Virus record (IMG/VR): IMGVR_UViG_3300025528_000027 | Span: 1 to 32,072 of that record | Length of the DNA stretch: 32,072 bases | Direction: 5' to 3' (one strand) | From: a virus | Lineage: Duplodnaviria; Caudoviricetes | Part shown: positions 1,039 to 29,252 of the stretch, piece after piece | How the letters are laid out: each line of letters starts with the position of its first letter | How positions within the stretch are numbered: the stretch's first letter is position 1 | Notes under the pieces: generated by a model | The model's input: the letters and a program-made list of their open reading frames with translations, nothing else | Databases searched by the model: none | Told to the model about the DNA's origin: nothing | Program-made: the position numbers and the translations under genes

Positions 1039-2483
1039 GCGCAATTGACACTCGCGCCGAGGTCGAGCGCATGGCGGCGCTGTACGGCCACGATGAGGCC
1101 GAGCCGGTCCGCGTCCCGCCGCAGTCCGTGCAGGCCGAGCAGGCGGTGTTGGGCGGCCTGCTACTGGTGCCGGAGGCGTGGCCGGTGGTATGCGACCTGC
1201 TGGCGGAGGGGGATTTCTACCGCCGCGACCACCAGCTGATCTGGCGGGCGGTGGAAGCGCTGGCGACGGCGGGGCGTCCGTTCGACGCGGTAACGGTGGG
1301 CGAGTGGTTCGAGTCGCAGGGGCTGTCGGAGCACGTGGCGGGGGGCGCCTACTTGATCGAGCTGGCGACCACCACACCGTCGGCGGCGAACATCCGCGCT
1401 TACGCCGAGATCGTGGCGGACAAAGCCCGGCTTCGCAGGTTGATCGAGATCGCCACGGAAACGGCGAACGCGGCGTTCGATCCGCAGGGCCGGATGAGCG
1501 ACGATTTGCTCAACGAGGCCACGCGTCGGCTGTCCGAATTGCAGCCAGCGCAGGCGGGCGGGTTGCGTCGTGTCGCCGACGGGCTGTCGCCGTGGTTTGA
1601 TCGGTTTTCGTCGCTGTACGAGAGCGGCGACCGGATGACCGGGCTGCCGACGCAGTGGGCTGGCGTCAACGAGGTTACGCATGGGCTACAGCCGGCGACG
1701 CTGTATCTGATCGCAGCGCGCCCGAGCATGGGCAAATCGGTCTGGGGGTTGAACCTGGCGACGTTCCTAGCGATGCGCGGGAAGGCGGTCGGGTTTTTCT
1801 CGCTGGAGATGTCGATGTCGGATTGCATCGCGCGCGCGGTGTCGTCTCTGACGGACGTTCCTCACGATTGGATCATTGCACCGAACGCGGAAGACGACGA
1901 TGGCTATACGTCGCGGCTGACGCCGGCCATCGCGGATCTCAAGCGGGCCCCGCTGTACATCGATGACACGCCGTCGCTGACGGTCCGGCAGTTCGAGGCC
2001 AGGGCGCGGAGGATGCACGCTAAGCAGCCGCTGGACTGCCTGATCGTGGACCACATTCACGATTTCAAGATCGACCCGAAGCTGGCTCGGTTTGAGTTCG
2101 GCGAGATCGTGCAGCGCGGGAAGACGCTGGCGAAAGAGTGGGGCATCCCGGTTGTGATGCTGGCGCAGTTGAACCGAAACGTTGCGGGCAGGACGGACAG
2201 GCGGCCGACGCTGGCGGACCTGCGCGAGTCTGGCGAGCTGGAGCAGAAGGGCGACGTGATCGCGTTCTTGCATCGTGAGGACTACTACGACGACACAACG
2301 CATCTGCGCGGCGTTGTCGAGCTGCACTTTGCCAAGGGGCGGAACATCCGCGCGGGCGCGCGGGTGCACCTGCGCAATCGATTCGACGTGATGCGCCTGG
2401 ATGATTGGGAGGGGCCGCTTCCGCAAGCGCCCGAGCCAGTCTCAGAGCGGAGGCCGCGCGGGTTCCGTGCGGGGTTCGCATGA
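1035..2483 (+). CDS. dnaB: Replicative DNA helicase, DnaB family
   Basis: PPQSVQAEQAVLGGLL N-domain, Walker A AARPSMGKS, SLEM, IVDHIH, AQLNR, DLRESGELEQ. ATG at 1035 overlaps the upstream stop (ATGA). Confidence 0.95.
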   Translation: MSAIDTRAEVERMAALYGHDEAEPVRVPPQSVQAEQAVLGGLLLVPEAWPVVCDLLAEGDFYRRDHQLIWRAVEALATAGRPFDAVTVGEWFESQGLSEHVAGGAYLIELATTTPSAANIRAYAEIVADKARLRRLIEIATETANAAFDPQGRMSDDLLNEATRRLSELQPAQAGGLRRVADGLSPWFDRFSSLYESGDRMTGLPTQWAGVNEVTHGLQPATLYLIAARPSMGKSVWGLNLATFLAMRGKAVGFFSLEMSMSDCIARAVSSLTDVPHDWIIAPNAEDDDGYTSRLTPAIADLKRAPLYIDDTPSLTVRQFEARARRMHAKQPLDCLIVDHIHDFKIDPKLARFEFGEIVQRGKTLAKEWGIPVVMLAQLNRNVAGRTDRRPTLADLRESGELEQKGDVIAFLHREDYYDDTTHLRGVVELHFAKGRNIRAGARVHLRNRFDVMRLDDWEGPLPQAPEPVSERRPRGFRAGFA

Positions 2484-2668
2484 TCGCCCGCTGCCACCTT
2501 CGCGCACTGGAGCAGGCGGCGAGACTGCCCCGCGATGCGGAGAAATTCCGGGAGCTGCTGGAGTCGTTCCCGGCGGTGTGCCCGCACAACGATTGCAGCG
2601 CGCCGAGCTGCCGGGTTGCGGTTGCGGACCTTTTGCGGCAGGCTTGGATTCAGAAGGGGAGGAAGTAA
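2480..2668 (+). CDS. Hypothetical protein (62 aa, Cys-containing)
   Basis: ATGA overlap with the dnaB stop and TAATG overlap with the next gene. Confidence 0.6.
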   Translation: MIARCHLRALEQAARLPRDAEKFRELLESFPAVCPHNDCSAPSCRVAVADLLRQAWIQKGRK

Positions 2669-3279
2669 TGCGAGTGGAAGTGATCGGAAATGCCACGCTG
2701 TATCTGGGCGACTGCCGCGACATTCTGCCCACGCTTCCGAAGGTGGATGCGGTGATTACGGACCCGCCGTATGGGATATCCGCCAACAAGATGACGCTCG
2801 GCAAAGGGAAGAAGGGCTTCTATCGAGGCGGCGCATGGGATGAAGAGCGGCCGGATATCGCCTGGATACCTGGCTGCGCGCGCTGGTTCTGCGTGTGGGG
2901 TGGTAACTACTTCGCCGACGTGTTGCCACCCACCAACGACATCCTTGTCTGGCACAAGCTGAACGACGGCCGCTCGTTTTCAGAGTGTGAGTTCGCATGG
3001 ACAAACGCAGGGAAGCAGGCCCGCATCCGTCAGCACCATTGGTCTGGCGAGGAAAAGAGCCACCCGACTCAGAAGCCATTGGCGGTCATGGAGTGGTCCC
3101 TCGGTTTCTTCCCCGAGGCGCAGTCCGTTCTTGACCCATTTATGGGCAGCGGCACCACGGGGGTTGCCTGCATGAACCTTGGCCGCCAGTTCATCGGCAT
3201 CGAGATCGAACCCAAGTACTTCGACATCGCCTGCCGTCGCATCGAGGACGCACAGCGTCAGGGGAGGTTGATCGAATGA
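2668..3279 (+). CDS. DNA N6-adenine/N4-cytosine methyltransferase (beta class)
   Basis: LYLGDC, DAVITDPPYG (motif IV), HPTQKP, VLDPFMGSGTTG (motif I). RBS GGAGG before the ATG at 2668. Confidence 0.92.
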   Translation: MRVEVIGNATLYLGDCRDILPTLPKVDAVITDPPYGISANKMTLGKGKKGFYRGGAWDEERPDIAWIPGCARWFCVWGGNYFADVLPPTNDILVWHKLNDGRSFSECEFAWTNAGKQARIRQHHWSGEEKSHPTQKPLAVMEWSLGFFPEAQSVLDPFMGSGTTGVACMNLGRQFIGIEIEPKYFDIACRRIEDAQRQGRLIE

Positions 3280-11426: not shown

Positions 11427-11972
11427 ATGCAATCCAATCGCGCCTATTCGGTGCTCGAAATCAAGTCTGTTGACGTGGAGGAGCGCTCCATCACGGGCAT
11501 TGCGACCACTCCCGAGACTGACCGTGTCGGCGACATCGTGGACCCGCTGGGGGCGAAGTTCGCGGAGGAGATCCCGCTGCTTTGGCAGCACCAGCACGAC
11601 AAGCCTGTGGGCGTTGCGCGATTTGGAAAGGCCACGAAGTCTGGCATCCCATTCACCGCCACGATTGCCAAGATCGCCGAGCCCGGGCCGCTGAAGGACC
11701 TGGTGGATATGGCTTGGCAAGCGGTGAAGGCCAAGCTGGTCCGGGGCGTGTCGATTGGCTTCCGCGCGCTTGGCTATGAGCCATTGGAGACTGGCGGCCT
11801 GAAGTTCACCGAGACCGAGATCTACGAGCTTTCGCTGGTGACGATCCCGGCGAATGCCTCGGCCACGATCCAGACGATCAAGAGCATGGACCGCAAACAT
11901 CTGGAAGGCGCGGTGAAGCTGATCCGCGCCCGCGATGTTGCGATCAAGAACGGAGCGGTTCCGCTCCGCTGA
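11427..11972 (+). CDS. HK97-family prohead protease
   Basis: DRVGDIV, LLWQHQHDKPVG, GVSIGF, ELSLVTIPAN. Confidence 0.93.
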   Translation: MQSNRAYSVLEIKSVDVEERSITGIATTPETDRVGDIVDPLGAKFAEEIPLLWQHQHDKPVGVARFGKATKSGIPFTATIAKIAEPGPLKDLVDMAWQAVKAKLVRGVSIGFRALGYEPLETGGLKFTETEIYELSLVTIPANASATIQTIKSMDRKHLEGAVKLIRARDVAIKNGAVPLR

Positions 11973-11974
11973 GC

Positions 11975-11990
11975 ACTGTCGTGAGACAGC
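11975..11990 (+). repeat. 16-bp direct repeat copy 1 (GUGA-tetraloop hairpin)
   Basis: ACTGTCGTGAGACAGC, identical to 12191-12206; folds as CTGTC-GTGA-GACAG. Confidence 0.85.
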
Positions 11991-12038
11991 GCATCCCCTA
12001 GAGGGAACCGAGCCGGGGCGCTGATCCCCGGCAACTAA

Positions 12039-12114
12039 GCCGGACTAGCTCAATTGGCAGAGCGGGGTCTTTGTAAGACTCGGGTTGGCGGTTCGATTCC
12101 GTCGTCCGGCTCCA
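12039..12114 (+). tRNA. trnT: tRNA-Thr (anticodon UGU)
   Basis: 76-nt cloverleaf: acceptor GCCGGAC/GTCCGGC, D arm GCTC/GAGC, anticodon stem GGGTC/GACTC with loop TT-TGT-AA (anticodon 12072-12074), T loop TTCGATT, encoded CCA. Confidence 0.93.
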
Positions 12115-12121
12115 AATTCAA

Positions 12122-12184
12122 GCGTCCATCCGCCCGTGGAACGGCGGTGCAGGGCTGCGCGTGGAACCGCAGCCGCATGGGCGC
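12122..12184 (+). ncRNA. Putative three-way-junction RNA element in the capsid leader
   Basis: GCGTCCAT/ATGGGCGC closes two hairpins (CCGCC/GGCGG and GGCTGCG/CGCAGCC) that both carry CGTGGAAC. Confidence 0.5.
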
Positions 12185-12190
12185 CAACCG

Positions 12191-12206
12191 ACTGTCGTGA
12201 GACAGC
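12191..12206 (+). repeat. 16-bp direct repeat copy 2 (GUGA-tetraloop hairpin)
   Basis: ACTGTCGTGAGACAGC, identical to 11975-11990. Confidence 0.85.
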
Positions 12207-12254
12207 CGATCGCATCGCCGCGAGGCGACGCATCCGAATACATGGAGCAAGAAA

Positions 12255-13679
12255 ATGAGCAATTACGCGAAGCAGATCGCCGATCTCCAGGCGACCCGCA
12301 AGGCCAAGGCCGAGGAGATGAAGGCCCTCGCCAAGACTGCGGAAGAGCAGGGCCGGACGTTCGATACCGGCGAGCAGGAGCAGTTTGACGAGCTGAAGGC
12401 GGCCATTGCGCAGATTGACAAGAGCATTGCCAACCTGCGCGAGCTGGAGGCCATCGAGAAGGCCGAGGCCGCCGATGCCGCGACCGCGAAGGCGGTTTCG
12501 GGCGACGAGCGCGCCAAGTCTGCGGTGTCCGTGGTCCGTGGCGGCGACGTGCAGGTCAAGGACACCACCAAGCTGGACAAGGGTATCAGCTTTGCCCGCA
12601 TGGCTCGCGTCAAGGCGCTGGCGTTCACTGGTCAGGCTGGCACCCGCAACGAGATCGAGATTGCCCAGAACCTGTATCCGGGCGACGAGTCGCTGGTGAA
12701 GTCGATCCAGAAGGCTGCGGTCCCGGCGGCGAATACCCTTACGGGCAGTGCCACCTGGGCGGGCAACCTGATCAACGAGGGTGGCGCTGCGTTCGCCGAC
12801 TTCGTGGAGTACCTGCGCGAGCGTTCGCTGTATGGTCAGATCAGCGACCGATTCCGCAGGCTGCCGTTCGACGCGCCGGTGCTGGTGCAGAGTTCTGGCG
12901 GCACTGCCCAGTGGGTCAAGGAGGGTGACGCGAAGCCGCTGACGCAGTGGACCTACACCCGCGCCAAGCTGACCCCGCTGAAGGTGGCCGCGATTGCCGC
13001 TGCGACCAAGGAGACGCTGATGCGCGCCTCGGTCAATGCTGATGCGTTCCTGCGTGACGAGCTGGCCCGTGCGGTCAATGCTCGCATCGACGGCACGCTG
13101 ATCAGCGCCGCCGCTGCCGTGACCGATGAGTCGCCGGCTGGCCTGCTGAACGGCACTGCGCCGCTGACCCTTTCGGGCGACGGTTCGGTGGCGGGCATCC
13201 GCTGCGACATCGCGCAGTTCCTGAAGGAGCTTGTCGGCGACAACCTGAGCGTGTCGGGCGCCTTCTGGGTCATGCCCGAGACGGTCGCGATTGACCTGTC
13301 GCTGGCGACCAACGAGGTCGGCGCTCCGGCGTTCCCGGGCATCACCCCGAACGGCGGCACGCTGGCGGGTCTGCCGGTGTTCACGTCGCAGTACGTGCCG
13401 ACCGACTCGGACGGCCCGGTTGTGGCGCTGATCAAGGGCGACGAGATCTTCCTCGGCGACGAGGGCGGCGTTCAGGTGTCTGTGTCGGATCAGGCGTCGC
13501 TGCTGATGGACAACGCGCCGACGATGGACAGCACCACGCCGACCGGCTCGAACTCGGTGGTCAGCATGTGGCAGACCAACAGCGTTGCGTTCCTGGTCGA
13601 GCGTTTCATCAACTGGCAGAAGCGTCGCGCTTCGGCGGTTGTGTGGGCGCACGTCAACTGGAATGCCTGCGCGTCCTAA
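12255..13679 (+). CDS. Major capsid protein, HK97 fold with N-terminal delta (scaffold) domain
   Basis: Coiled-coil N-terminus, WVKEG..KP, LTPLKVAAI, TLAGLPVFTSQYVP, SMWQTNSVAFLVER. Confidence 0.95.
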   Translation: MSNYAKQIADLQATRKAKAEEMKALAKTAEEQGRTFDTGEQEQFDELKAAIAQIDKSIANLRELEAIEKAEAADAATAKAVSGDERAKSAVSVVRGGDVQVKDTTKLDKGISFARMARVKALAFTGQAGTRNEIEIAQNLYPGDESLVKSIQKAAVPAANTLTGSATWAGNLINEGGAAFADFVEYLRERSLYGQISDRFRRLPFDAPVLVQSSGGTAQWVKEGDAKPLTQWTYTRAKLTPLKVAAIAAATKETLMRASVNADAFLRDELARAVNARIDGTLISAAAAVTDESPAGLLNGTAPLTLSGDGSVAGIRCDIAQFLKELVGDNLSVSGAFWVMPETVAIDLSLATNEVGAPAFPGITPNGGTLAGLPVFTSQYVPTDSDGPVVALIKGDEIFLGDEGGVQVSVSDQASLLMDNAPTMDSTTPTGSNSVVSMWQTNSVAFLVERFINWQKRRASAVVWAHVNWNACAS

Positions 13680-13689
13680 GCGGCACTTC

Positions 13690-13720
13690 GGAGGGGCTGG
13701 GAAACCGGCCCCTCCTTTTT
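13690..13720 (+). terminator. Intrinsic terminator after the capsid gene
   Basis: GGAGGGGCTGG-GAAA-CCGGCCCCTCC followed by TTTTT. Confidence 0.88.
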
Positions 13721-13734
13721 CGGCGAGGTGACAA

Positions 13735-13929
13735 GTGCGAATTCAATATCGAGCGAACGGTATGCAGCGCGAGGTGCGGGACAGCGTGGGCGAGGTTCTG
13801 ATTGCCCGCAATCTTGCGACCCGCGTTTACCGGACGCGTGAGCTTGTGGCCGATGAGCCGGAAGAGGCACCTCGCACGGGCAAGTCAAAGCGGAAATACA
13901 AGCGGCGCGATCTGGCTGCCGAGGACTGA
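13735..13929 (+). CDS. Hypothetical small basic protein (64 aa)
   Basis: GAGGTG RBS, GTG start, C-terminal KRKYKRRDL. Lies between capsid and portal. Confidence 0.7.
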   Translation: MRIQYRANGMQREVRDSVGEVLIARNLATRVYRTRELVADEPEEAPRTGKSKRKYKRRDLAAED

Positions 13930-13930
13930 G

Positions 13931-15316
13931 ATGCGAATTTTCGGGTTCAACATCACGCGCGAGAAGGCGGCGAAGCCCGTGACTGACTGGCGTCGTGGCT
14001 GGCGCGTCATCCATGAACCCTATACGGGCGCGTGGCAGAAGAACGACGAGCTGAAGCGCGGCGACCTGACCTGCTACCCGGCGCTGTATGCGTGCCTGAA
14101 TCGAATCACGCAGGACATTGGCAAGCTGCCGTTCCTGCTGAAGAGGAGGGGCGCGAACGGGATCTGGGAGGTTGCCGAGAACCCGGCATGGTCGCCCGTC
14201 CTGCGCAAGCCGAATGGCTACCAGACCGCGCAGCAGTTCCGCGAGGCGTGGATTCTGTCGAAGCTGCTGGACGGAAACACGTTTGTCCTGAAGCAGCGCG
14301 ACAATCGAGGCGTGGTCACGTCTCTGTACGTTCTGGACCCGAGCCGCGTTGAGCCGCTGGTGTCGGAAGCGGGCCGCGTGTTTTACCGGCTGAACTATGG
14401 CACGGCCAACAACCTGCTGCCCGATGCCTACGGCGGGGAGCAGATCACGGTTCCGGCGTCGGAGATCATCCACGACCGGATCAATCCGTTCCATCATCAG
14501 CTGCTCGGCGTGCCGCCTCTGTGCGCGGCTGCGCTGGCGGCAGGAAAGAATTTCAAGATCCTTCGCAACAGTTCGGCGTTCTTTGCCAACAACGCAAGTC
14601 CGGGCGGCCTGATTACCGCGCCCGCGGGCTTGACTGAGGAAGAGGCCGACGCAATCCAGGCCGCGTTCAATGAAAGGTACAGCGGCGAGAACAGCGGCAA
14701 GATCGCTGTGATCGGTGCCGACCTGAGGTTTACGCCGTTCTCCTTCAAGGCGGCGGATTCGCAGCTTGTCGAGCAGCTTCGCTACTCGGACGAACAAATC
14801 TGCCAGCCTTTCGGCATCCCGCCGTTCAAGATTGGCATCGGCTCGATCCCCGCAGGCATGACGGTTGACCAGATCAACCTGCTCTACCACGAGGACGCGC
14901 TGAGCGGCCATATCGAGGCGATGGAGAACCTGCTGGATGAGGCCCTGAACCTGCCACAGGACTGGGGGATCTGGCTGGATACGGAACCGCTGTTCCGCAT
15001 GGACGAGGGCAAGCGTGCGGAGATCGAGACGAAGCTGGTCGGCGGGATGATCAAGACGCCTGACGAGTCCCGCGCGAAGTTTGGCCTTGCCCCGACCGCT
15101 GGCGGCAATACGTTGTGGGGCCAGCATCAAGACTACCCGCTCGGGACGCTGGCCAATCGCCTGCCGCCTGACCAGAAGCCGCAGTCGCCTGAGCAGGCAG
15201 CCCCCACGGCGGATGAAGGCACGGCGAGAGAGGAAGAGCGGGCTATGGTGGCGGCTGCGATTGCGCAGCTCGCCCGTCAGTCGCTGAAGAAGAGGAAAGC
15301 GGCAAATGCAGCTTGA
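13931..15316 (+). CDS. Portal protein, HK97 family
   Basis: YAC..RI..DIGKLP, LRKPNGYQT, LLDGN, EIIHDR, FFANNASPGG, DSQLVEQ, PFGIPP, KTPDESR. Start at ATG 13931. Confidence 0.93.
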   Translation: MRIFGFNITREKAAKPVTDWRRGWRVIHEPYTGAWQKNDELKRGDLTCYPALYACLNRITQDIGKLPFLLKRRGANGIWEVAENPAWSPVLRKPNGYQTAQQFREAWILSKLLDGNTFVLKQRDNRGVVTSLYVLDPSRVEPLVSEAGRVFYRLNYGTANNLLPDAYGGEQITVPASEIIHDRINPFHHQLLGVPPLCAAALAAGKNFKILRNSSAFFANNASPGGLITAPAGLTEEEADAIQAAFNERYSGENSGKIAVIGADLRFTPFSFKAADSQLVEQLRYSDEQICQPFGIPPFKIGIGSIPAGMTVDQINLLYHEDALSGHIEAMENLLDEALNLPQDWGIWLDTEPLFRMDEGKRAEIETKLVGGMIKTPDESRAKFGLAPTAGGNTLWGQHQDYPLGTLANRLPPDQKPQSPEQAAPTADEGTAREEERAMVAAAIAQLARQSLKKRKAANAA

Positions 15317-16040
15317 CGTGAAGGCGCTTGGCGAAATGATCGCCGACCTGATTGCAGATGCGGTCGAGCCGTTGGAGAAGGCGAACGCCGAGCTGCGCAA
15401 GGAGATCGATGCCCTCAAGGCGCGCGAGCCTGACAGCATCGAAGCCCGGCCGGTCGAGATTGACGTGTCCGATGTGGTGAAGGAGCTGCTCGCAGCCGAC
15501 GAGATCAGGCAGTTGGTCGGGCTGGAGGTCGAGGCGTACCTGACGGAGAACCCGCCGCCCCCCGGCGAGCCGGGAAAGTCTGTGACGCTGGACGACGTGT
15601 CCGTGTTTCTGGAAGCCGCTGTCGCCAAGCACGTGCTGGACTTTGAGCGCCGCGCGAGCGAGAAACTGGACAGGGCCATTGAGCGCATCCCGGTGCCGAG
15701 GGATGGACGGGACGGCGTGGACCTGACCGAGCTTTCGCTGGACTACGACGGCGAGCGCACGGTGACGGTCAAGGGCCGTACGGGCACGGTGACCAAGCGC
15801 GTCCCAGTCCCGCTGTGGCGCGGCTACTGGTCGCCGGGTGTCGTTGCAGAGAAGGGCGACATCCTGACGCACAATGGCACGGCTTACATCGCAATCGTGG
15901 ACAACCCACGGTGTGAGCCGGGCGTTGGCAAGTACGACCACGAGTGGAAGGTGTTCGCGCGCAAGGGGCGCGACGGCAGGGATGGCCGAAACGGGATCGA
16001 CAAGACGGCTCCGGTCAAGGTGACGCGCGACGATGAGTGA
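15306..16040 (+). CDS. Head-associated protein with short Gly-X-Y tracts and a CBM5/12-like C-terminal motif
   Basis: Coiled-coil N-terminus, GEPGKS/GRDGVD/GRDGRDGRNG tracts, WRGYW....KGDILTHNGTAYIA. Confidence 0.6.
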   Translation: MQLDVKALGEMIADLIADAVEPLEKANAELRKEIDALKAREPDSIEARPVEIDVSDVVKELLAADEIRQLVGLEVEAYLTENPPPPGEPGKSVTLDDVSVFLEAAVAKHVLDFERRASEKLDRAIERIPVPRDGRDGVDLTELSLDYDGERTVTVKGRTGTVTKRVPVPLWRGYWSPGVVAEKGDILTHNGTAYIAIVDNPRCEPGVGKYDHEWKVFARKGRDGRDGRNGIDKTAPVKVTRDDE

Positions 16041-16446
16041 ATTGATCACCCGCGAGCAGGCATACGAGCACCTGCGGCTGGACTACGACAGCAGCGGCAG
16101 CGCCGATGACGGCTGGCTGGACGTGTTCATCCCGGCAGTCTCTGAGGCCGTGCGGCGGTGGCTGAAAGAGGACTGGCGTCTGTACGAATGGGAGACTGAC
16201 AGCGACGGCAACATCGTGCGAGACTCCGACGGCAACCCCGTCCCGCTTCTTGATAGCGACGGCGAGCCGGTGGTGAAGCCTGTGGTGCGCGCCGCCTGCC
16301 TGCTCGAACTGGCGTCGCAGTACCGATTCCGCGAGGGCGATGGCCGCGACAACGCCGTGCCGTCGCATGAAGGGTACGGCCACGGCCTGACCAGTAAGGC
16401 GGCTGTGGCGCTTCTGACGACGATTCGACGTCCGACGGTGGCATGA
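16033..16446 (+). CDS. Head-tail connector (HK97 gp6-like)
   Basis: LITREQAYEHLRLD, VRAACLLELASQYRFREG, LL..IRRPTVA. Contains three DSDG repeats. Confidence 0.85.
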   Translation: MSELITREQAYEHLRLDYDSSGSADDGWLDVFIPAVSEAVRRWLKEDWRLYEWETDSDGNIVRDSDGNPVPLLDSDGEPVVKPVVRAACLLELASQYRFREGDGRDNAVPSHEGYGHGLTSKAAVALLTTIRRPTVA

Positions 16447-17348
16447 ACTACGACCTTTACCACGGCGACTGCCTAGAGGTGATGGCGGGGCTGCCGGATG
16501 GGTCCGTTGATGCTGTGATCTGTGACCCGCCATATGGGACGATGCAAGGGTTCAACGGCATAGATTGGGACGTTGCGCTGGACCCCGCCGCCGTGTTCGA
16601 GCACTGCAACCGCGTGTTGCGGATGAACGGCGCGCTGGTGCTGTTCTCACAAGAGCCGTACACGTCCCGCCTCATTACCGAGGCGCACGGGAACCTGCCG
16701 TTTAGCTACCGCATGACGTGGCTCAAAGACAGTTTCGCCAATCATTTGATGTGCAAGAAGGCGCCGGTCTCCTACACCGAGGACGTGCTGGTTTTCTTCA
16801 AGAAGTACGACACGCTGGCGCAGCATCCACTACGGAAGTACGCCGCGCGGGTGCTGGCGGCATGCGGTGGTGATCTGAAGGCGATCAACGCGCGGCTGGG
16901 CCATCGTCGCGCGGAGCATTTCTTCTATGTGGAGTCCACGCAGTTTGGGCTTTGCACAGAACAAACCTACGCGCAGTTGTGCGAGGTGTACGGGCTGGAG
17001 GACTTTGAGTGGTTTAAGCCATACGCGGAGCTTGAGGAAATCAACCGCCGCTTCAAACGCCGCTTCAATCTGCCCGAAGGCCAGAAGTACAAGTCCAACG
17101 TCCTGCAATACCCGAAGGACTACACCGGCCACCATCCGACGCAGAAGCCGGTGGCGCTGATGGAGGACTTGGTAAAGACGTACACGGACCCCGGCGAAAC
17201 GGTGCTTGACTTCACGATGGGCAGCGGATCGACCGGCGTCGCCTGCGCGAACACGGGCCGGCGCTTCATTGGCATCGAGCGCGACGACAAATACTTCGCC
17301 ATCGCATCCGAGCGGATCGCGGAAGCGTATCGGAAAGAGGCCGCCTGA
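16443..17348 (+). CDS. DNA N6-adenine/N4-cytosine methyltransferase (beta class) with internal insertion
   Basis: LYHGDCLEVM, DAVICDPPYG, HPTQKPVALME, VLDFTMGSGSTG. Carries an extra segment of roughly 80 aa (HPLRKY...INRRF). Confidence 0.92.
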   Translation: MNYDLYHGDCLEVMAGLPDGSVDAVICDPPYGTMQGFNGIDWDVALDPAAVFEHCNRVLRMNGALVLFSQEPYTSRLITEAHGNLPFSYRMTWLKDSFANHLMCKKAPVSYTEDVLVFFKKYDTLAQHPLRKYAARVLAACGGDLKAINARLGHRRAEHFFYVESTQFGLCTEQTYAQLCEVYGLEDFEWFKPYAELEEINRRFKRRFNLPEGQKYKSNVLQYPKDYTGHHPTQKPVALMEDLVKTYTDPGETVLDFTMGSGSTGVACANTGRRFIGIERDDKYFAIASERIAEAYRKEAA

Positions 17349-17349
17349 C

Positions 17350-17694
17350 ATGCCCGCAGTAGCTTCCGGCAACCTGCGCCACAAGGTGTGGTTGCAAGCC
17401 AAGCAGATCACGCAAGACCCGGTGACGGGCGAAATGCTGACCACATGGGTCACCATCGCCCGCCCGTGGGCCGAGATCGTGCCCATGTCGGGGCGTGAGT
17501 TCATGGCCGCCGGTGCGGAGCAGTCCGAGGTGCGCGGGCGGATCGTGATCCGGTATCGCGATGACGTGGACGCCTCCATGCGCGTCGTCTATCGCGGGCG
17601 GTACTACAACATCTTGGCTGTGCTGCCGGATGCGGAATCCGGGCGCGAACACCTCACGCTGATGACTGGCGAAGGGGTCAGGCTTGACCAGTGA
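17350..17694 (+). CDS. Head closure/head-tail adaptor (SPP1 gp16-like)
   Basis: GNLRHKV.LQ..QDPVTGE...W.....WAEI.P.SGREF..IRYR....MRV..YNI.AVLPD. Confidence 0.88.
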   Translation: MPAVASGNLRHKVWLQAKQITQDPVTGEMLTTWVTIARPWAEIVPMSGREFMAAGAEQSEVRGRIVIRYRDDVDASMRVVYRGRYYNILAVLPDAESGREHLTLMTGEGVRLDQ

Positions 17695-18236
17695 CGACAT
17701 GGGCATTACTCGCGCCGGGTCCTTCCGCTTCGGCGGAGGATGCCGAGCGCGTCAGGGCGGCAGGAATTCCGCTGGGGGTCATCGGAAACGCCTTCCAGCT
17801 CGCGCCGTGGGCCGACTTTCTGGCCGCTACCGATGCGGCGTGGTGGCGGAAGTACCCTGAGGCGCTGACGCTGCCGGGCGCGAAGTACACGATGCACCAG
17901 GTCAAGGGCGTCGAGCGCGTCAAGGTGGCGGGCTACGTATCCGTCAACAGCGGCGTTCTGGGGCTGGAAGTGGCCCGGTCGAAAGGGGCCAGCCGGATCC
18001 TGCTGTTTGGGTTCGACATGCACGGCACGCATTTCTTCGGCCCGTACACCAACGGCCTGAGCAACACCAGCGAGGCCAAGCGCCGGATGCACTTGGCGCA
18101 GTACGCGCGATGGGCGAAGCGGAATCATGAGATACAGGTAATCAACTGCACGCCAGGTTCGGCGCTGCAATGTTTCCCAACGGCGAGGCTGGATGAATAT
18201 CTACGTACCGGACAGGTGCCTGCCGCTGCTTCGTGA
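17691..18236 (+). CDS. Putative Maf/GT29/GT42-like (DUF115-type) transferase
   Basis: APGPS, a downstream N, ADFLAATDAAWW, NSG..GLEVA...GASRILLFGFDM..HFFG, VINCTPGSAL. This motif order is seen in nucleotide-sugar-using Rossmann-like transferases. Confidence 0.55.
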   Translation: MTTWALLAPGPSASAEDAERVRAAGIPLGVIGNAFQLAPWADFLAATDAAWWRKYPEALTLPGAKYTMHQVKGVERVKVAGYVSVNSGVLGLEVARSKGASRILLFGFDMHGTHFFGPYTNGLSNTSEAKRRMHLAQYARWAKRNHEIQVINCTPGSALQCFPTARLDEYLRTGQVPAAAS

Positions 18237-18777
18237 GCAGAGGACGCACTACAGGGACATTCGGGCAGAGTACGGGCGGGAGATCGAGGCGACGTTTGCC
18301 ACGTTCCGAGACTACCTGCCGGAGACTGCCGACAACATTCTGGACATCGGTTCGGGCATGGCCGGTATCGATGTCCTGCTGGGTGGGCACTACCCGGGGG
18401 CTACGCTTCACCTGCTGGACAAGTCTGGCGTGTCGCCGAGGATCAACGCCGGATTCAACGAACGGGCTGAGGACTTCGCGCACTACAACGACTTCGACGC
18501 GGCGCGGGAATTGCTGGCGGCAAACGGAATTACGAATCCGGTTGTCTGCCATGACATGCACTGTGATCCATTCCCGGATCAGCTGTTCGATGTAGTGGTG
18601 AGCCTGCTGTCGTGGGGGTTCCACTATCCGATTTCGACCTATGCGCCGCGCTGCCGTGGAATCATGGTGGTAGACGTGAGGAAGGGAACAGGCGGTGAGG
18701 CAATGCTGGCCGAGTACGGAGACTTGAAAGTCGTCCACGAAGGCAGGAAATATCGGCGGGTCGTCGTCAAGTGCTGA
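18193..18777 (+). CDS. Class I SAM-dependent methyltransferase (non-DNA type)
   Basis: ILDIGSGMAG (motif I), LHLLD (motif II), FDVVVSLLSWGFHYP. No DPPY/NPPY or PC motif. Confidence 0.8.
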   Translation: MNIYVPDRCLPLLREQRTHYRDIRAEYGREIEATFATFRDYLPETADNILDIGSGMAGIDVLLGGHYPGATLHLLDKSGVSPRINAGFNERAEDFAHYNDFDAARELLAANGITNPVVCHDMHCDPFPDQLFDVVVSLLSWGFHYPISTYAPRCRGIMVVDVRKGTGGEAMLAEYGDLKVVHEGRKYRRVVVKC

Positions 18778-19466
18778 CTTTCGTCTGCTTCAAATGGCGT
18801 CCGGTGCGAACCGGCTTCCAGCTCCCGTCGGTGTGTCAGTACACAGCCAAGCACGTCAATGTGCTGCGTTCCATGTTGGAACGACATGTGCATATTCCGC
18901 ACAGACTGGTTTGTGTGACCGATGATCCAGCCGGGATAGATCCGCGTGTGGAGATCGTTCCGCTGTGGGACAAGTGCCGAGCGCTGGGCGGGTGCTACAA
19001 TCGGCTATGGGTGTTCAGCCACGAAGCGCGTGACCTGTTCGGCGACCGATTCGTGTGCATCGATCTGGACGTGGTGCTGGTGCGGGACTGCACGACGCTG
19101 TTCGCGAGGCCCGAGGACTTCGTGATCAACGCCTACAACCCAATCCGCGAAGGCGAAAACGATCAGCACTACAACGGCGGACTTTTCATGATGACCGCCG
19201 GAGCGCGGGCATCGGTCTGGGAGCAGTTCGATCCGCAGACAACGCCAGCCGTTGTGCAGGCGGACCCTCGTGTCATCGGCTCGGATCAGGCGTGGATCAG
19301 GCTTCACCTCGGGCGAGGCGAAGCGCGCTGGACGAATGCCGATGGCGTCTACGAGGCCCGGCAGGTCAGGCACGAGCTGCCGGAGAACGCGCGTCTTGTG
19401 CTGTTCTCCGGCAAGCGTGACCCATCGCGCTTTCCGTATCCGTGGATTCGGGAACACTGGCGATGA
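18771..19466 (+). CDS. GT-A fold glycosyltransferase (GT8-like)
   Basis: VCFKW, LVCVTDD, CIDLDVV (DxD), YNGGLFMM, SDQAWI, LVLFSGKRDP. Confidence 0.82.
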   Translation: MLTFVCFKWRPVRTGFQLPSVCQYTAKHVNVLRSMLERHVHIPHRLVCVTDDPAGIDPRVEIVPLWDKCRALGGCYNRLWVFSHEARDLFGDRFVCIDLDVVLVRDCTTLFARPEDFVINAYNPIREGENDQHYNGGLFMMTAGARASVWEQFDPQTTPAVVQADPRVIGSDQAWIRLHLGRGEARWTNADGVYEARQVRHELPENARLVLFSGKRDPSRFPYPWIREHWR

Positions 19467-20128
19467 GGACCATCGCTTGCGTGCTGAAAACCGGCGTGTG
19501 GCGCAACCGGCACATGCGGGTCGAGTACGGCCCGGATCATGTGCGGTGGCTGCGCGATCAGCTCCCGAGGTACGTGGGGACGGCGTATCGGTTCGTCTGC
19601 CTGAGCGACATTCCGATTGCCGGGGTGGACGTGATCCCGCTGAGGGATGACCTGCCGGGGTGGTGGTCGAAACTTGAGCTGTTCCGCGAGTTGGAGGATG
19701 CGTTCTACGTTGACCTCGATACGGTCATCGTCGGCGACATCACGCGGATGGTGAAGCACAAGCACAGGTTCACCGTGCTGCGGAACCTGTCGAGCAGGCA
19801 GAATGGTCGCATCGGTTCCGGCGTCATGGCGTGGCGGGGCGACTACTCGCACCTATACCGCACATTCATGGAGGACCCGCAGCGGCATATGGCCGAGTGC
19901 GTCACCCCGGCCAAGTGGGGCGATCAGGGGTTCATCCAGCACGTCCAGCGCGAGCATGGCGGCTGGGATTATTTCCAGGACCTGTGGCCGGGGCGCATCC
20001 AGTCGTTCAAGACGGACCTGCGCTACGGCGACCCGGGGAAGGATTGCCGGATCGTGTGTTTCCACGGCGAGCCTCGGCCATGGGCGTCGGGCAAGTCTTG
20101 GGTTCCGGAGTTGAAGCATGGACATTAG
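19463..20128 (+). CDS. GT-A fold glycosyltransferase (GT8-like), second paralogue
   Basis: FVCLSD, GWWSKLELF, YVDLDTVIVGDI (DxD), GSGVMAW, WGDQGFI, CFHGEPRPW. ATGA-coupled start at 19463. Confidence 0.85.
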   Translation: MRTIACVLKTGVWRNRHMRVEYGPDHVRWLRDQLPRYVGTAYRFVCLSDIPIAGVDVIPLRDDLPGWWSKLELFRELEDAFYVDLDTVIVGDITRMVKHKHRFTVLRNLSSRQNGRIGSGVMAWRGDYSHLYRTFMEDPQRHMAECVTPAKWGDQGFIQHVQREHGGWDYFQDLWPGRIQSFKTDLRYGDPGKDCRIVCFHGEPRPWASGKSWVPELKHGH

Positions 20129-20594
20129 CGTCAACGTGCAGGGCCTGGCAGAGATCGAGCGCAAGCTGAAGCTGCTGCCGGAGCGTATCGGCAACAACGC
20201 CATGCGTCGCGCGCTCCGAAAGGGCGCGAATGTCATCCGAGATGCAGCGCGTGCGAACGCAAAGCGGATCGACGACCCGGAAACCCGCGAGGCGATCTAC
20301 AAGAACATCGCCGTGGCCGGTGGTGGCCGGAGGCGCGAGCGGCAGGCCGGTGGCGTGATGATGCGAGTCGGCGTCCGTGGCGGCGCGAGGCCGCTGAGGA
20401 AGGGGACCGATACCGGTCTGCCGGGCGGCAACACGACCCACTGGCGATTCGTTGAGTTCGGGACCAGCCAGGCGCGAGCGCAGCCGTTCATGCGCCCAGC
20501 CGCTGCCAGCTCCGCCGGTGCGGCGTATCAGGCTGTGGCGGCGGCAGCGCCTGCCGAGATCGACAAAGAGCTGCGCAAGCTGGGGATCACCTGA
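20118..20594 (+). CDS. HK97 gp10-family tail completion protein
   Basis: V.GL.E..RKL, RRALRKGANVIRD.A, WRFVEFGTS..AQPFMRPA. Confidence 0.9.
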   Translation: MDISVNVQGLAEIERKLKLLPERIGNNAMRRALRKGANVIRDAARANAKRIDDPETREAIYKNIAVAGGGRRRERQAGGVMMRVGVRGGARPLRKGTDTGLPGGNTTHWRFVEFGTSQARAQPFMRPAAASSAGAAYQAVAAAAPAEIDKELRKLGIT

Positions 20595-20968
20595 TGTATC
20601 CGGACATTTTCCAGACTGCTAAGAAAAGCTCGGCAGTTACCGCGCTGCTCGGCAGCAATCCGGTGAGGTTCTGGCCGTTTGGCACCGCGCCGCAGGGCGA
20701 GGAGCGTCCCTATGCGGTCCACCAGCTTGTGTACGGCACGCCGGCTAACACGCTGTCCTGCCCGCCGTCCGAGGACGTGATGGGCATCCAGGTGGATTGC
20801 TACGCCAAGAGCGTGAGTTCCGCCCGAGCCGTCGCCGCAGCCCTGCGGGACGCGATCGAGGGCGACTTCAACCACGTAGTCGCATGGAACGGTGAGGACT
20901 ACGAGCCCGCCACCGGCCTGTGGCGCGTCAGTTTTACTGCCGAGTTCTTCATGGAACGCGGCACCTGA
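20594..20968 (+). CDS. Tail terminator (DUF3168-like)
   Basis: VTALLG..RFWPFG.APQ..PYAV.Q..G.P.N.L...IQVDCYA, positioned before the tail tube gene. Confidence 0.82.
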   Translation: MYPDIFQTAKKSSAVTALLGSNPVRFWPFGTAPQGEERPYAVHQLVYGTPANTLSCPPSEDVMGIQVDCYAKSVSSARAVAAALRDAIEGDFNHVVAWNGEDYEPATGLWRVSFTAEFFMERGT

Positions 20969-21031
20969 TTCGGTCTGTGCACAGGCCGAAACGGCTGCCG
21001 TGAGGCAGTCGGAAACCCCGCCGTGAGGCGG
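20969..21031 (+). promoter_or_regulatory. Tandem hairpins in the tail tube leader
   Basis: TTCGGTCTG-TGCA-CAGGCCGAA, GGCTGCC-GTGA-GGCAGTC and CCGCC-GTGA-GGCGG. Confidence 0.55.
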
Positions 21032-21060
21032 CACATCCCAACGTTGGAAGGAAAATGTAG

Positions 21061-21537
21061 ATGCGTACCGCAGGAACCGAGCTGTACTTCATTGACCCGA
21101 ACGATTGCAGTGTCGTGCAGGTTGGCTGCCCGACTTCGATCACCGGCCTTGATTCCACCATTGAGCAGCTGGAAACCACTTGTCTGGAATCCACCGCTCG
21201 CACCTACGAAGCGGGCCTTGCCACTCCCGGCACGGCTTCATTCACGCTGAACCTTGACCCGCAGGACCCGTCACACATTCGCCTGCTGGAACTCAAGACT
21301 GCGGGCACTTCGCTGAAGTGGGTCATCGGCTTCCCGGATGCCATCGGCACCGCCCCGACCGGAACGACCGACTCTGACGGCGAGTGCGCATTCGTCCTCC
21401 CGTCGAACCGGACGTGGCTGGAGTTCGAGGGCTTCGTGAACAGCTACGCCTTCGATTTCAGCCTGAATGCGCTGATCACTGCGACTGTCGGCATTCAGGT
21501 GTCCGGCGACCCGGTGCTGACCCCGGCGGGTAGCTAA
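21061..21537 (+). CDS. Major tail tube protein
   Basis: GTELYFID, LETTCLE..RTYEAGL.TPG.ASF.LN.DP, F.GFV....FDF, IQVSG.P. Confidence 0.9.
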   Translation: MRTAGTELYFIDPNDCSVVQVGCPTSITGLDSTIEQLETTCLESTARTYEAGLATPGTASFTLNLDPQDPSHIRLLELKTAGTSLKWVIGFPDAIGTAPTGTTDSDGECAFVLPSNRTWLEFEGFVNSYAFDFSLNALITATVGIQVSGDPVLTPAGS

Positions 21538-27265: not shown

Positions 27266-28263
27266 GCGATTACGCAGGTCCCGTTCTCGGCGTCGTTGGC
27301 GCCGTTGTAGGCTTTGCGGTTGGTGGCCCTTCCGGCGCCATGTGGGGCTGGACCATCGGCGCGACGCTCGGCGGCATGTATTCTGCGTCGCAGCAGGTCA
27401 TCCCGGGCCCGAAAATCGGTGATGTACAGAGGCAGACGCAGCAGGAGGGCGGATTCCGCCCCATTGTCTATGGCAGGTCGCATCCGATTGCGGGAAACGT
27501 CATCGCCGATGGCGGGCCGGTCATCGTCAAAAAGCGGCAGCGCCAGGGAAAGGGCGGCCCGAAGGTCGAGACGGAATCTGTCTATCGCACGTATGCGGTG
27601 GGGTTCTGTGAGGGCGAGGCGATACTGCTGCAAGCGTGGCGGAACGGCATTCTCGTCTACGACGCCGAAGACCCGTCGATGGCGGCGGAGAACGCGAAGT
27701 TCCTTGAGTACGCCACTTGGTACACAGGCAGCTTCAATCAGGGGCCGTCTCCTGCGCTGGAGGAGATTTTCGGGGTGGGGCAAGCGCCCTACTTCCGGGG
27801 AACGGCCTATCTCGCACTTCACAACGAGGACGTGACCGACCTGCGAGGCGCTTGGTCGCAATGGCAGGTCCGCGTGTTCCGTGGTGCTGCGCGATCCTAT
27901 ACCACGCCGCCGTATCCGGTGGTCTTCACGGATTCTCTTGGCATCACCTCGCTCGCCCGCAAAGGCGGCCACTATACATTCCCGGTCGAGGGAATGTCGG
28001 TAGAGTCGCTGGCCTTGGGCGGAACGCTCAAAGACACATTTCTCAGCTACGCAAGTCCACCAGAGGAGATGGATATCTCCAGCATTGCGCTCGGTGGAAC
28101 GCTTGGCACGCCACTACAGCACTACGACTACGAACCAGAACCCCTGGATATTTCCAGTGTCGCGCTAGGGGGCGACTTGGAAGTCGTTCTGTTGCGGTAT
28201 CAAAACTACGAACCAGAGGCCATGGACATTTCCAGTGTCGCACTAGGAGGAACCCTGACGTGA
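27262..28263 (+). CDS. Central tail/tip protein, N-terminal part, fused to a repeat domain
   Basis: Gly-rich N-terminus, RPIVYG..IAGNVI, TYAVGFCEG, YTG...Q.P.P.LE...G...PYFRGTAY, then C-terminal DISS.ALGG.L repeats. Confidence 0.8.
   Translation: MSDYAGPVLGVVGAVVGFAVGGPSGAMWGWTIGATLGGMYSASQQVIPGPKIGDVQRQTQQEGGFRPIVYGRSHPIAGNVIADGGPVIVKKRQRQGKGGPKVETESVYRTYAVGFCEGEAILLQAWRNGILVYDAEDPSMAAENAKFLEYATWYTGSFNQGPSPALEEIFGVGQAPYFRGTAYLALHNEDVTDLRGAWSQWQVRVFRGAARSYTTPPYPVVFTDSLGITSLARKGGHYTFPVEGMSVESLALGGTLKDTFLSYASPPEEMDISSIALGGTLGTPLQHYDYEPEPLDISSVALGGDLEVVLLRYQNYEPEAMDISSVALGGTLT
27988..28260 (+). repeat. Four ~25-aa coding repeats E.(M/L)(D/S)(I/V).S.ALGG.L
   Basis: MSVESLALGGTL, MDISSIALGGTL, LDISSVALGGDL, MDISSVALGGTL. 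Confidence 0.8.
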
Positions 28264-29252
28264 TCGATATTTACATCCCAAGCGGGCGGTTCTTAGAAGG
28301 CGAAATTTCCGAAGCGAAAGTTGGTCTTGAGGGCTGGTATACGTTGCGCGCCAGACGCCGCAGCGGGCGCGTGACCCGTGAGCGTACGTTCAAGGTGGAA
28401 GCGTGCCGAGAGCTTCCTCCATTCCATAATCTGATCACCAATCTGGGGCTTGATCGCTTCGGCTCGGCGCCTGCAAATTCACTCTACATCAGGTGCCATG
28501 TTGGCACTGGAACGGCCACCCCTTCGGTAACCGACACGCAGTTGCAGACCTTCTTGGCTGCCGTGAGTACGTCGAACCCGACGACTGCAATCGCCAACTC
28601 TGGCCCCCCCGATTACTACTCGTATCGCACTTTCACTTGGACAAGTTCCATTGGCGCGCTCGGCAACAACAATCTGACCGAGATCGGGATCAGCGGCCAG
28701 AGCACAAACGGCCTGTTGTTCTCGCGCGAACTGATACGCGACTCTGGCGGAAACCCGACAGCTTTCCCGATTTCAGCCGATGAGCAGCTTGAGGTCACGT
28801 ATGAGTTGCGCATCTATCCTAACTTGACTGATGTTCCGGCTACGGTGATGGTCGGGTCGAATAGCCACGATACGATCACGCGCCCAATGTTGGTGAACAA
28901 CACAGGATTCTGGGGCCCGCTCCAAGTAGCGTCCGGTGTTGCGAATGCGGCGCGGGGCGGCGCCGCTGGAACAAATAGGGCGCATTCTGGCGACCTGGTT
29001 CCGTATACAGATTCTCTCCCGTCAGGCAGTCTTGGTGACGCCTCTTCTGGCGCAACCGCCCCGTACACGAATGGCAGTTTTTATCGAGATGTGTCAAACA
29101 CGTGGAACATCTCTACTGGCAACGGGAATATCCGGGTTGTGACGGTTGGATTTGGTTGCGCCGCTTTTCAGGTTCGCTATGACCCGGTTATCACGAAAAC
29201 CAACACGCAAGTCCTCACCCTCCATCAGCGCATTTCGTGGGCGCGGCGATGA
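28260..29252 (+). CDS. Virion structural protein (330 aa, Ser/Thr/Gly/Asn-rich, beta-rich)
   Basis: GTGA-coupled start at 28260. FHNLITNLGLD, VGTGTATP..TDTQL, NLTEIG, LFSRELIRD..GNP, L.VTYELRIY. Confidence 0.75.
   Translation: MIDIYIPSGRFLEGEISEAKVGLEGWYTLRARRRSGRVTRERTFKVEACRELPPFHNLITNLGLDRFGSAPANSLYIRCHVGTGTATPSVTDTQLQTFLAAVSTSNPTTAIANSGPPDYYSYRTFTWTSSIGALGNNNLTEIGISGQSTNGLLFSRELIRDSGGNPTAFPISADEQLEVTYELRIYPNLTDVPATVMVGSNSHDTITRPMLVNNTGFWGPLQVASGVANAARGGAAGTNRAHSGDLVPYTDSLPSGSLGDASSGATAPYTNGSFYRDVSNTWNISTGNGNIRVVTVGFGCAAFQVRYDPVITKTNTQVLTLHQRISWARR

Follow-up and report, generated by a model that had tools for sequence, protein, structure and literature searches.

IMG/VR record IMGVR_UViG_3300025528_000027 is a lone 32-kb virus record with a G+C content of 63%, which we analysed over its full 32,072 nucleotides (hereafter the window). 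Three virion proteins encoded there, the major capsid protein, the head-tail connector and the tail tube protein, carry a short motif, D-[S>T]-x-G, and a cassette of four transferase-like genes lies among the head and tail genes. Across related phages the motif accompanies the cassette, and relatives without the cassette retain the turn that holds the motif while losing its hydroxyl residue. On this distribution and on predicted protein folds, we consider it probable that phage-encoded enzymes O-glycosylate the virion surface, with the serine of the motif as acceptor. A preliminary description of the window had put forward the serine of DS(D)G as a site of O-linkage. Relatives, gene content and folds support this proposal, but the motif is broader than first described, and modification of the serine is something we infer.

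Co-occurrence of the motif and the cassette

Loci were collected with three tube, one connector and two capsid scans of viral contigs, taking the best 80 matches per alignment scan, and named phages were added. A locus was classed as cassette-bearing on a profile match to a cassette gene, and as cassette-less when a capsid-to-tube span contained no such match. For the tube there were 264 loci, from which 53 that fitted neither class were removed; the 142 distinct tubes formed 74 clusters at 85%, and splitting the one mixed cluster gave 76 rows.

The preliminary description had predicted that DSxG loops would accompany the cassette, and this was the case in capsid, connector and tube, with the loops nearly absent where the cassette was missing. 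The tube hairpin read [DN][ST]x[GD] in 47/57 cassette-bearing rows and 1/19 cassette-less rows (56/57 and 10/19 for a looser pattern accepting any S/T). D[ST]xG was present in 49 of 64 connectors with the cassette and in none of 24 without it, and in 14/61 and 0/24 head-closure proteins, respectively. Over all capsid loci, the loop carried D[ST]xG in 24/43 cassette-bearing clusters and [ST]xG in 39/43, while neither pattern was found in the 14 cassette-less clusters. The sharpest result is that cassette-less relatives retain the turn and lose the hydroxyl. Among D-x-x-G turns in connectors and tubes, position 2 was S or T in 127/153 cassette-bearing cases and in 1/20 cassette-less cases; cassette-less tubes read DVAG, DADG, NVAG or GADG, and cassette-less connectors DDDG, DEAG, DEQG or DDLG.

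On a tree of neck, terminator and tube proteins built without the loop (74 rows, with L061 and L167 left out), the cassette state changed at least 12 times. Seven independent pairs on starred branches gave 5.7 in the same direction and none in the opposite direction (median p 0.031), and the motif was present in tube or connector in 48/49 cassette-bearing versus 1/19 cassette-less cases. Phage SOVA965 has the gene order of the window without the cassette; its capsid, connector and tube proteins are also without the loop, the repeat and the motif, respectively. In another relative (L003) the first cassette gene stands alone between the head-closure and neck genes, and the motifs are kept. L003 is a mosaic, with neck and terminator proteins 91-93% identical to those of the window and a tube only 60% identical. 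Near-identical capsid loops were also seen that read GSGDP without the cassette (L292) and GSGSP with it (L299, L304). Six named cassette-less phages were not among the 50 whole-genome matches of the first cassette gene. Searches of prokaryote genomes yielded very little: 1 locus in one search, and in another 3/400 genomes with a TTP_11 match.

Form and position of the motif

A six-frame scan of the window located five copies of DSDG and one of DSSG in the capsid, connector and tube proteins (Table 1), with the serine codons TCG, AGC, TCC, AGC and TCT in the DSDG copies. The identities of the three genes were confirmed by Pfam and PHROG, and exact DSDG occurred five times in 16 structural proteins (5033 residues) and not at all in 29 non-structural proteins (5174 residues). 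In all this the preliminary description was correct. Its estimate of well under one chance occurrence stands as arithmetic (0.17 expected from residue frequencies), but the motif was chosen post hoc and equally rare tetrapeptides are common: 15 of them recur in at least three window proteins, where shuffles average 5.95 and never fall below 1. The pentapeptide TDSDG is common to capsid and tube, and some pentapeptide equals this in 39% of shuffles. Three of the five DSDG copies form one internal connector repeat. D[ST]xG was counted 9 times in structural and 3 times in non-structural proteins, with 5.8 expected overall, and the window holds 50 D-x-x-G turns without S/T. In-window statistics were dropped as proof after this look-elsewhere control; because equally rare shared tetrapeptides arise in shuffles, the excess over chance rests on the relatives and not on the window. 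Three further sites were seen: a DSGG at 28740 (D[ST]xG also occurs in L223, the single cassette-less homolog seen), and DSAG at 29528 and DSLG at 27931, which were found in near relatives only.

In cassette-bearing connectors and tubes the consensus is D-[S>T]-[N/S/D/A]-G. Across 127 such motifs, position 2 was S in 109 and T in 18, and position 3 was N in 42, S in 28, D in 21 and A in 20; exact DSDG was rejected as a sequon because position 3 is variable. The serine codons of the motif are a mixture of AGY and TCN. Connector homologs numbered 157; in the best 120 of them, the three repeats kept S/T in 114, 115 and 107 sequences and the second Asp in 83, 89 and 79. Of 351 tube homologs, the best 120 had S/T at the serine position in 119 cases, with the flanking D, D and G present in 90, 88 and 106. 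These connector and tube searches were word-indexed and so biased toward motif-bearing matches, and other S/T columns were equally conserved, for which reasons serine conservation in close homologs was judged insufficient as proof of function.

Calcium-binding loops follow the pattern Dx[DN]xDG. This alternative, raised in the preliminary description, was rejected: Asp is missing from position -2 at all five sites, and the second Asp, present in only 21/127 motifs, varies where the serine does not.

In the predicted structure of the tube protein the motif caps the tip of a beta-hairpin (loop predicted local distance difference test score, pLDDT, 86-91), which appears as an insertion in the gpV-like fold. 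Because the same loop of PseuP_224 (L137) takes an insertion of ~75 residues, a whole domain, the tube loop presumably faces outward. The capsid motif is in an A-domain loop that we take to be external, by equivalence to the P22 I-domain. Cys109, beside the tube motif, is co-distributed with Cys16 in near relatives and is replaced by Tyr in more distant tubes; a Cys109-Cys16 disulfide may possibly pin the hairpin.

C-terminal serine as a candidate second site

The capsid and tube proteins of the window both end in serine. A terminal serine was found in 20/59 cassette-bearing tubes versus 0/20 cassette-less tubes, most cassette-bearing tubes being without it. The corresponding counts were 7/11 versus 1/19 for D3-type capsids, the exception being HK022, and 11/36 versus 0/3 for capsids of the window type. 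Terminal serines of connector, neck and head-closure proteins had no link to the cassette. The C-terminal serine is a candidate second acceptor on the strength of this pattern.

In phage P1 (L288 9067-10773, 28119-28847, 31592-34150; L287 38366-39202) the capsid and gp7 end in GDSE and gp16 in DSDA, which is possibly a C-terminal variant of the tag. In the myovirus phiNP (L057:21858-24288) the cassette, which includes an unannotated homolog of the first cassette gene, lies upstream of the terminase; the decoration protein of phiNP ends in three serines.

The core gene and its variable partners

The first gene of the cassette, here called the core gene, was present in 44/44 cassette-positive clusters spanning head to tube, and the other cassette profiles matched 16, 14 and 10. 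Its product of 181 residues (median homolog 183) was modelled with a pLDDT of 94. The best match to the model, by both Foldseek and VIA, was the flagellin-type transferase Maf (5MU5 residues 272-513; Foldseek E 1.6e-4, Z 14.1, root-mean-square deviation 2.8 over 160 residues), with CstII at Z 11.2-11.5 over ~163 residues. Of the Atlas clusters bearing a family assignment, the nearest carry PF01973 (in 34% of members; 0.90) and, as a lead only, PF01973/WaaZ Kdo-transferase (0.88), where Kdo is 3-deoxy-D-manno-octulosonate. Twenty-seven columns are invariant in the core family, among them NSG, GxD and two His; N86, D109, H114 and H134 are invariant residues of the enzyme. According to a study of Maf, these enzymes transfer Kdo and N-acetylneuraminic acid (Neu5Ac) to Ser/Thr in E. 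coli (10.1101/2020.06.03.131540). We classed the core protein as Maf-like rather than Maf because it has no sequence match to PF01973, and, judged by its modelled fold, it is likely an initiating O-glycosyltransferase. Its constant presence in cassettes points to a role in beginning the glycan and not in capping it. The preliminary description had placed the writer enzyme in the neighbouring transferase cassette. The cassette is indeed tied to the motif, but the initiator is likely the Maf-like core gene and not the two GT8-like genes, which are absent from most relatives. Prediction of a complex between the core protein and residues 44-90 of the connector, made without folding controls, scored 0.15 (mark 0.32) and was not used either way.

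Fused forms of the Maf-like domain were also seen, to a collagen-PKD stalk with a further domain at the C-terminus (L133:1994-3916, L176:3933-5699, L178:2578-4479), LamG-like in L133 and L178, and to a methyltransferase (L213:7375-8454). P1 has two Maf-like paralogs, pmgO and pmgP, and a Ser/Thr phosphatase before pmgQ.

The two remaining transferases of the cassette (18771-19466 and 19463-20128) have invariant D84, D86, D154, Q155, G202 and P206, corresponding to DxD, xDQ and G-x-x-x-P-W motifs; singly, such proteins gave no match to Pfam PF01501, hence the designation GT8-like. The methyltransferase-like gene (18193-18777), which is absent from the close relative L002, is a likely glycan modifier. 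Other open reading frames (ORFs) between the core gene and the tube gene fell into 40 families over 53 loci. A scan of 26 family representatives and 8 further proteins identified GT2, GT2-GT9, GT-D, TOD1/MUCI70, FkbM and other methyltransferases; cargo of unrelated kinds (Rha, PKD/LamG, GDPD) was also present, and 13 proteins matched nothing. The commonest partner family, found at 21/53 loci, weakly resembles WbbB/KpsC (E 0.03-0.8), entries which we take to be Kdo-transferases, and matched Capsule_synth in 3/18. This pattern of gene content fits a fixed initiator with swappable extenders.

Proposed pathway and its implications

We propose that the Maf/CstII-like protein, expressed late, would act in the cytoplasm while the particle assembles, moving a host keto-sugar activated by cytidine monophosphate (CMP) onto the hairpin-tip Ser/Thr, and that the same enzyme might perhaps also modify the C-terminal serine of capsid and tube. 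Gram-negative hosts make CMP-Kdo for lipopolysaccharide (LPS). CMP-Kdo would be the most plausible donor, given the weak partner matches and host metabolism. The variable genes, here the two GT8-like genes and the methyltransferase, would extend and cap the first sugar, so that glycans would vary among phages while the tag stays constant. In the least supported step, such a coat would be dispensable for assembly and would alter recognition of the particle or its subunits by receptors, decoys, antibodies or host sensors. A fuller version is that widespread stand-alone Maf-like phage enzymes of ~180 residues read a portable D-S-x-G tag and terminal serine and prime capsid, neck and tail with Kdo from the host LPS pool, on which swappable partners build LPS-core-like or capsule-like glycans; we put this forward tentatively and regard it as possible but rather doubtful.

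If glycosylation of the tag is correct, virion glycosylation in tailed phages, demonstrated for a few mycobacteriophages according to the literature consulted, would extend to a large group of Proteobacteria phages, and the long-unassigned genes pmgO/pmgQ of P1, hdmB/hdmD of P7 and orf7 of D3 would gain a function. It would bear on adsorption, on recognition by antibodies and host sensors, and on the interpretation of cryo-electron microscopy and proteomics of these phages. If the Kdo-primed version holds, the classic laboratory phages D3 and PAJU2, and probably P1 as well, would be glycoviruses that have gone unrecognised, with a host-mimicking coat. The enzyme and its four-residue tag would make a minimal tool for site-directed O-glycosylation and, with both writer and tag supplied, the proposal would be directly testable in D3 and PAJU2.

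Limits of the association and alternative explanations

Several results weigh against glycosylation of the tag or narrow its reach. The motif definitions were set after the data had been seen, and cassette absence in contigs was judged within ~10 kb only. When a new set of capsids at greater distance was examined (81 loci, of which 43 were left unclassed), 1/6 cassette-bearing clusters had the strict motif, against 0/12 cassette-less clusters (p 0.33), with [ST]xG in 4/6 versus 0/12 and the connector motif in 1/3 versus 1/12; the cassette-bearing capsids of this set carry other Ser-Gly loops. The capsid tree, with only 3 cassette changes, and the tube-only tree, with only 4 starred pairs, each gave p 0.25 and were underpowered. 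There was no link to the cassette in D3-type capsids (2/10 versus 8/19), neck proteins (1/76 versus 0/22) or terminators (4/74 versus 0/27), and portal DSxG was reversed (8/59 cassette-bearing versus 10/21 cassette-less). Fifteen of 64 cassette-bearing connectors are without the motif, many having Ser-rich inserts instead, and P1 has the cassette with no internal DSxG in capsid or tube and one in the sheath. The core fold also resembles proteins that are not glycosyltransferases (SteA at Z 11.5, thiamine pyrophosphokinase at Z ~10), the core gene matched no Pfam family at E 0.01, PF01973 included, and its profile had no sequence match in the PDB. Modification of the serine is a reading of the observed motif distribution, selective hydroxyl presence, gene content and predicted folds. 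By its distribution, D-S-x-G is a tag of the lineage of the window and not of all cassette-bearing phages. Among D3-type connectors with the cassette, acidic Ser-rich inserts (ESSE, SSSE, SSSSS) stand at the place of the DSxG repeat in D3 (L060:6390-6710), Psp6 (L061:12560-12910), L245, L279 and L104.

The core protein could instead be bound to the virion, docking on D-S-x-G hairpins as a decoration or as a sugar-binding adhesin of transferase fold, with the serine an unmodified contact. The PAJU2 record AP009624 labels the core homolog ORF10 'structural protein', a label otherwise given, in the stretch read, just to capsid and tube genes, and the collagen-PKD stalk fusions point the same way. 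However, a tethered enzyme would equally be found in virions, the core gene travels with glycosyltransferases and methyltransferases and is fused to one of the latter in L213, its 27 invariant columns resemble an active site, and the interchange of S and T and the separate terminal-serine signal fit chemistry on a hydroxyl; we consider docking unlikely. Somewhat less probable again is that the loops are just common Asx-x-x-Gly beta-turns, or turns that bind metal, and hitch-hike with the cassette because the genes for head, neck and tail pass on as one block. In favour of this, the window has many D-x-x-G turns, the motif sits at what is predicted to be a hairpin tip, numerous other S/T columns show equal conservation, independent pairs are few and portal DSxG is independent of the cassette. 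Hitch-hiking would not lead one to expect that cassette-less relatives swap the hydroxyl residue only, that so many cassette changes yield no opposite pair, or that the same tag recurs across three folds with no relation to one another and across connector subfamilies that are likewise unrelated; for a metal turn, the Asp at position 3 that a calcium loop requires is the variable one.

Two further alternatives accept a working cassette and differ on its chemistry or its substrate. The first group added to the serine might be phosphoryl, pyrophosphoryl or nucleotidyl-linked, with sugars following later or never. The fold is common to thiamine pyrophosphokinase and MptE-type HPPK (Z 9.4-10.1), and P1 and P7 have the Ser/Thr phosphatase inside the cassette; but Maf scores 4 Z units above the kinases, with 160 against ~120-130 residues aligned, and the partner genes are glycan enzymes, so that we rate a non-sugar group as about as improbable as hitch-hiking. 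Glycolipids are the usual substrates of CstII-, WaaZ-, KpsC- and GT9-like enzymes, which counts in favour of a cassette directed at host LPS or capsule or at phage DNA, with the serine loops serving a host enzyme or being a separate linked trait. Phage glycosyltransferases that modify DNA and host serotype are described in PMC12619734. Such a substrate leaves the loss of serine with the cassette unexplained, and against it also stand the position of the cassette within the late head-tail operon, where start and stop codons overlap, and the presence of the O-antigen genes of D3 and PAJU2 elsewhere in their genomes; it is the least credible of the alternatives. Glycosylation of the tag by the cassette remains our preferred explanation.

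Gene setting

The window holds a siphovirus late region with genes for terminase, protease, HK97-fold capsid, portal, connector, head closure, the cassette, neck, terminator, tube, tape measure and tail tip (features bearing on the motif are collected in Table 1). The protease and capsid (11427-13679) are separate ORFs here and in near relatives, and a single fused ORF in PAJU2 and FSL SP-016. An N6/N4 DNA methyltransferase gene (16443-17348) is inserted between the connector and head-closure genes. Relatives 96-97% identical to the window (L002-L004) have none, and L005 has a 41% identical DNA methyltransferase in its place; a second DNA methyltransferase of the window lies at 2401-3279.

Table 1. 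Motif sites, candidate acceptors and cassette genes in the window
Feature	Position	Strand	Remarks
HK97-fold major capsid protein, 474 residues	12255..13679	+	Pfam PF05065, phrog_617; alignable to solved capsid 9d9w
Capsid DSDG, residue 384, A-domain loop	13404..13415	+	Short insertion relative to 9d9w; insertion relative to cassette-less relatives
Capsid C-terminal Ser	13674..13676	+	Second candidate acceptor
Head-tail connector (Ad1)	16033..16446	+	phrog_40; one DSSG and an inserted triple DSDG repeat
Connector DSSG	16087..16098	+	
Connector DSDG (three), residues 56, 64, 74	16198..16209, 16222..16233, 16252..16263	+	
Four-gene cassette	17691..20128	+	Between head-closure and neck genes
Core gene, single-domain Maf/CstII-like protein	17691..18236	+	phrog_4603; predicted fold
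S-adenosylmethionine (SAM)-methyltransferase-like gene	18193..18777	+	Variable member; weak Methyltransf_25
GT8/glycogenin-like glycosyltransferase 1	18771..19466	+	Variable member; phrog_1962; profile match to glycogenin, E 1.5e-5; invariant DxD
GT8-like glycosyltransferase 2	19463..20128	+	Homolog of P1 PmgQ / P7 HdmD
Lambda-like tail tube protein (TTP_11)	21061..21537	+	Pfam PF16460; model resembles lambda gpV
Tube DSDG, residue 104	21370..21381	+	Predicted tip of inserted beta-hairpin (strands 100-103, 109-112)
Tube C-terminal Ser	21532..21534	+	Second candidate acceptor
DSGG in tail-tip protein (28260-29252)	28740..28751	+	Doubtful extra site

Comparison with known systems

O-glycosylation of virions by phage enzymes has been reported in mycobacteriophages, for Che8 gp110, Corndog gp38 and Myrna, with glycans at the C-termini of capsid and tail tube (Freeman et al. 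2023, as cited in PMC12363180, PMC12619734 and PMC11256854; C-termini in PMC12619734). The system proposed here is alike in its phage-encoded glycosyltransferases and in its proposed capsid and tube targets. A C-terminal acceptor would match the terminal serine that tracks the cassette here, which most cassette-bearing tubes do not have. It differs in its proteobacterial hosts, in an internal D-[ST]-x-G tag in three folds including the connector, and in a core gene of Maf/CstII fold; and glycosylation was shown in mycobacteriophages, whereas here we infer it from genes, sequences and predicted folds. No mycobacteriophage was among the 32 and 50 tblastn matches (E 1e-5) of gene 19463-20128 and the core gene, respectively; 18771-19466 and the methyltransferase were not searched. 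The preliminary description had supposed that a system of writer enzymes and shared tag was undescribed. This holds for the tag and the enzyme, as neither a D-S-x-G tag nor a Maf-like phage virion transferase was described in the literature searched, which left out most subscription journals, but phage virion glycosylation as such was already known from mycobacteriophages.

Maf (PF01973/Maf_flag10, 5MU5, with catalytic residues E324 and D415) has the closest fold; it acts on Ser/Thr and takes CMP-keto-sugars, Kdo among them, as donors. Maf is a multi-domain protein of 632 residues from flagellar glycosylation loci, whereas the core protein has one domain, 181 residues long, and lies in a phage virion operon; neither flagellin nor nonulosonate genes were seen in the Pfam and PHROG annotation of the window. 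A short sequence tag is proposed for the core gene system, while the accessible part of the Maf paper (10.1101/2020.06.03.131540) names no sequon. The CstII/GT42 sialyltransferases share the fold and are the source of the PHROG label 'alpha-2,3-sialyltransferase'. CstII adds sialic acid to a sugar acceptor; in contrast, the acceptor here would be a protein, and the core gene would start the glycan.

Homologous cassettes are found in well-known phages: pmgO-pmgP-ppp-pmgQ in P1, hdmB-hdmD in P7, orf7, orf12 and orf13 in D3 and ORF10-12 in PAJU2. These genes are annotated just as 'putative morphogenetic function', 'head morphogenesis' or hypothetical, and pmgO, pmgP and pmgQ of P1 were scored non-essential in PMC10695390. 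The tubes of D3, PAJU2 and Psp6 carry DS[SN]G at the same hairpin as the tube of the window.

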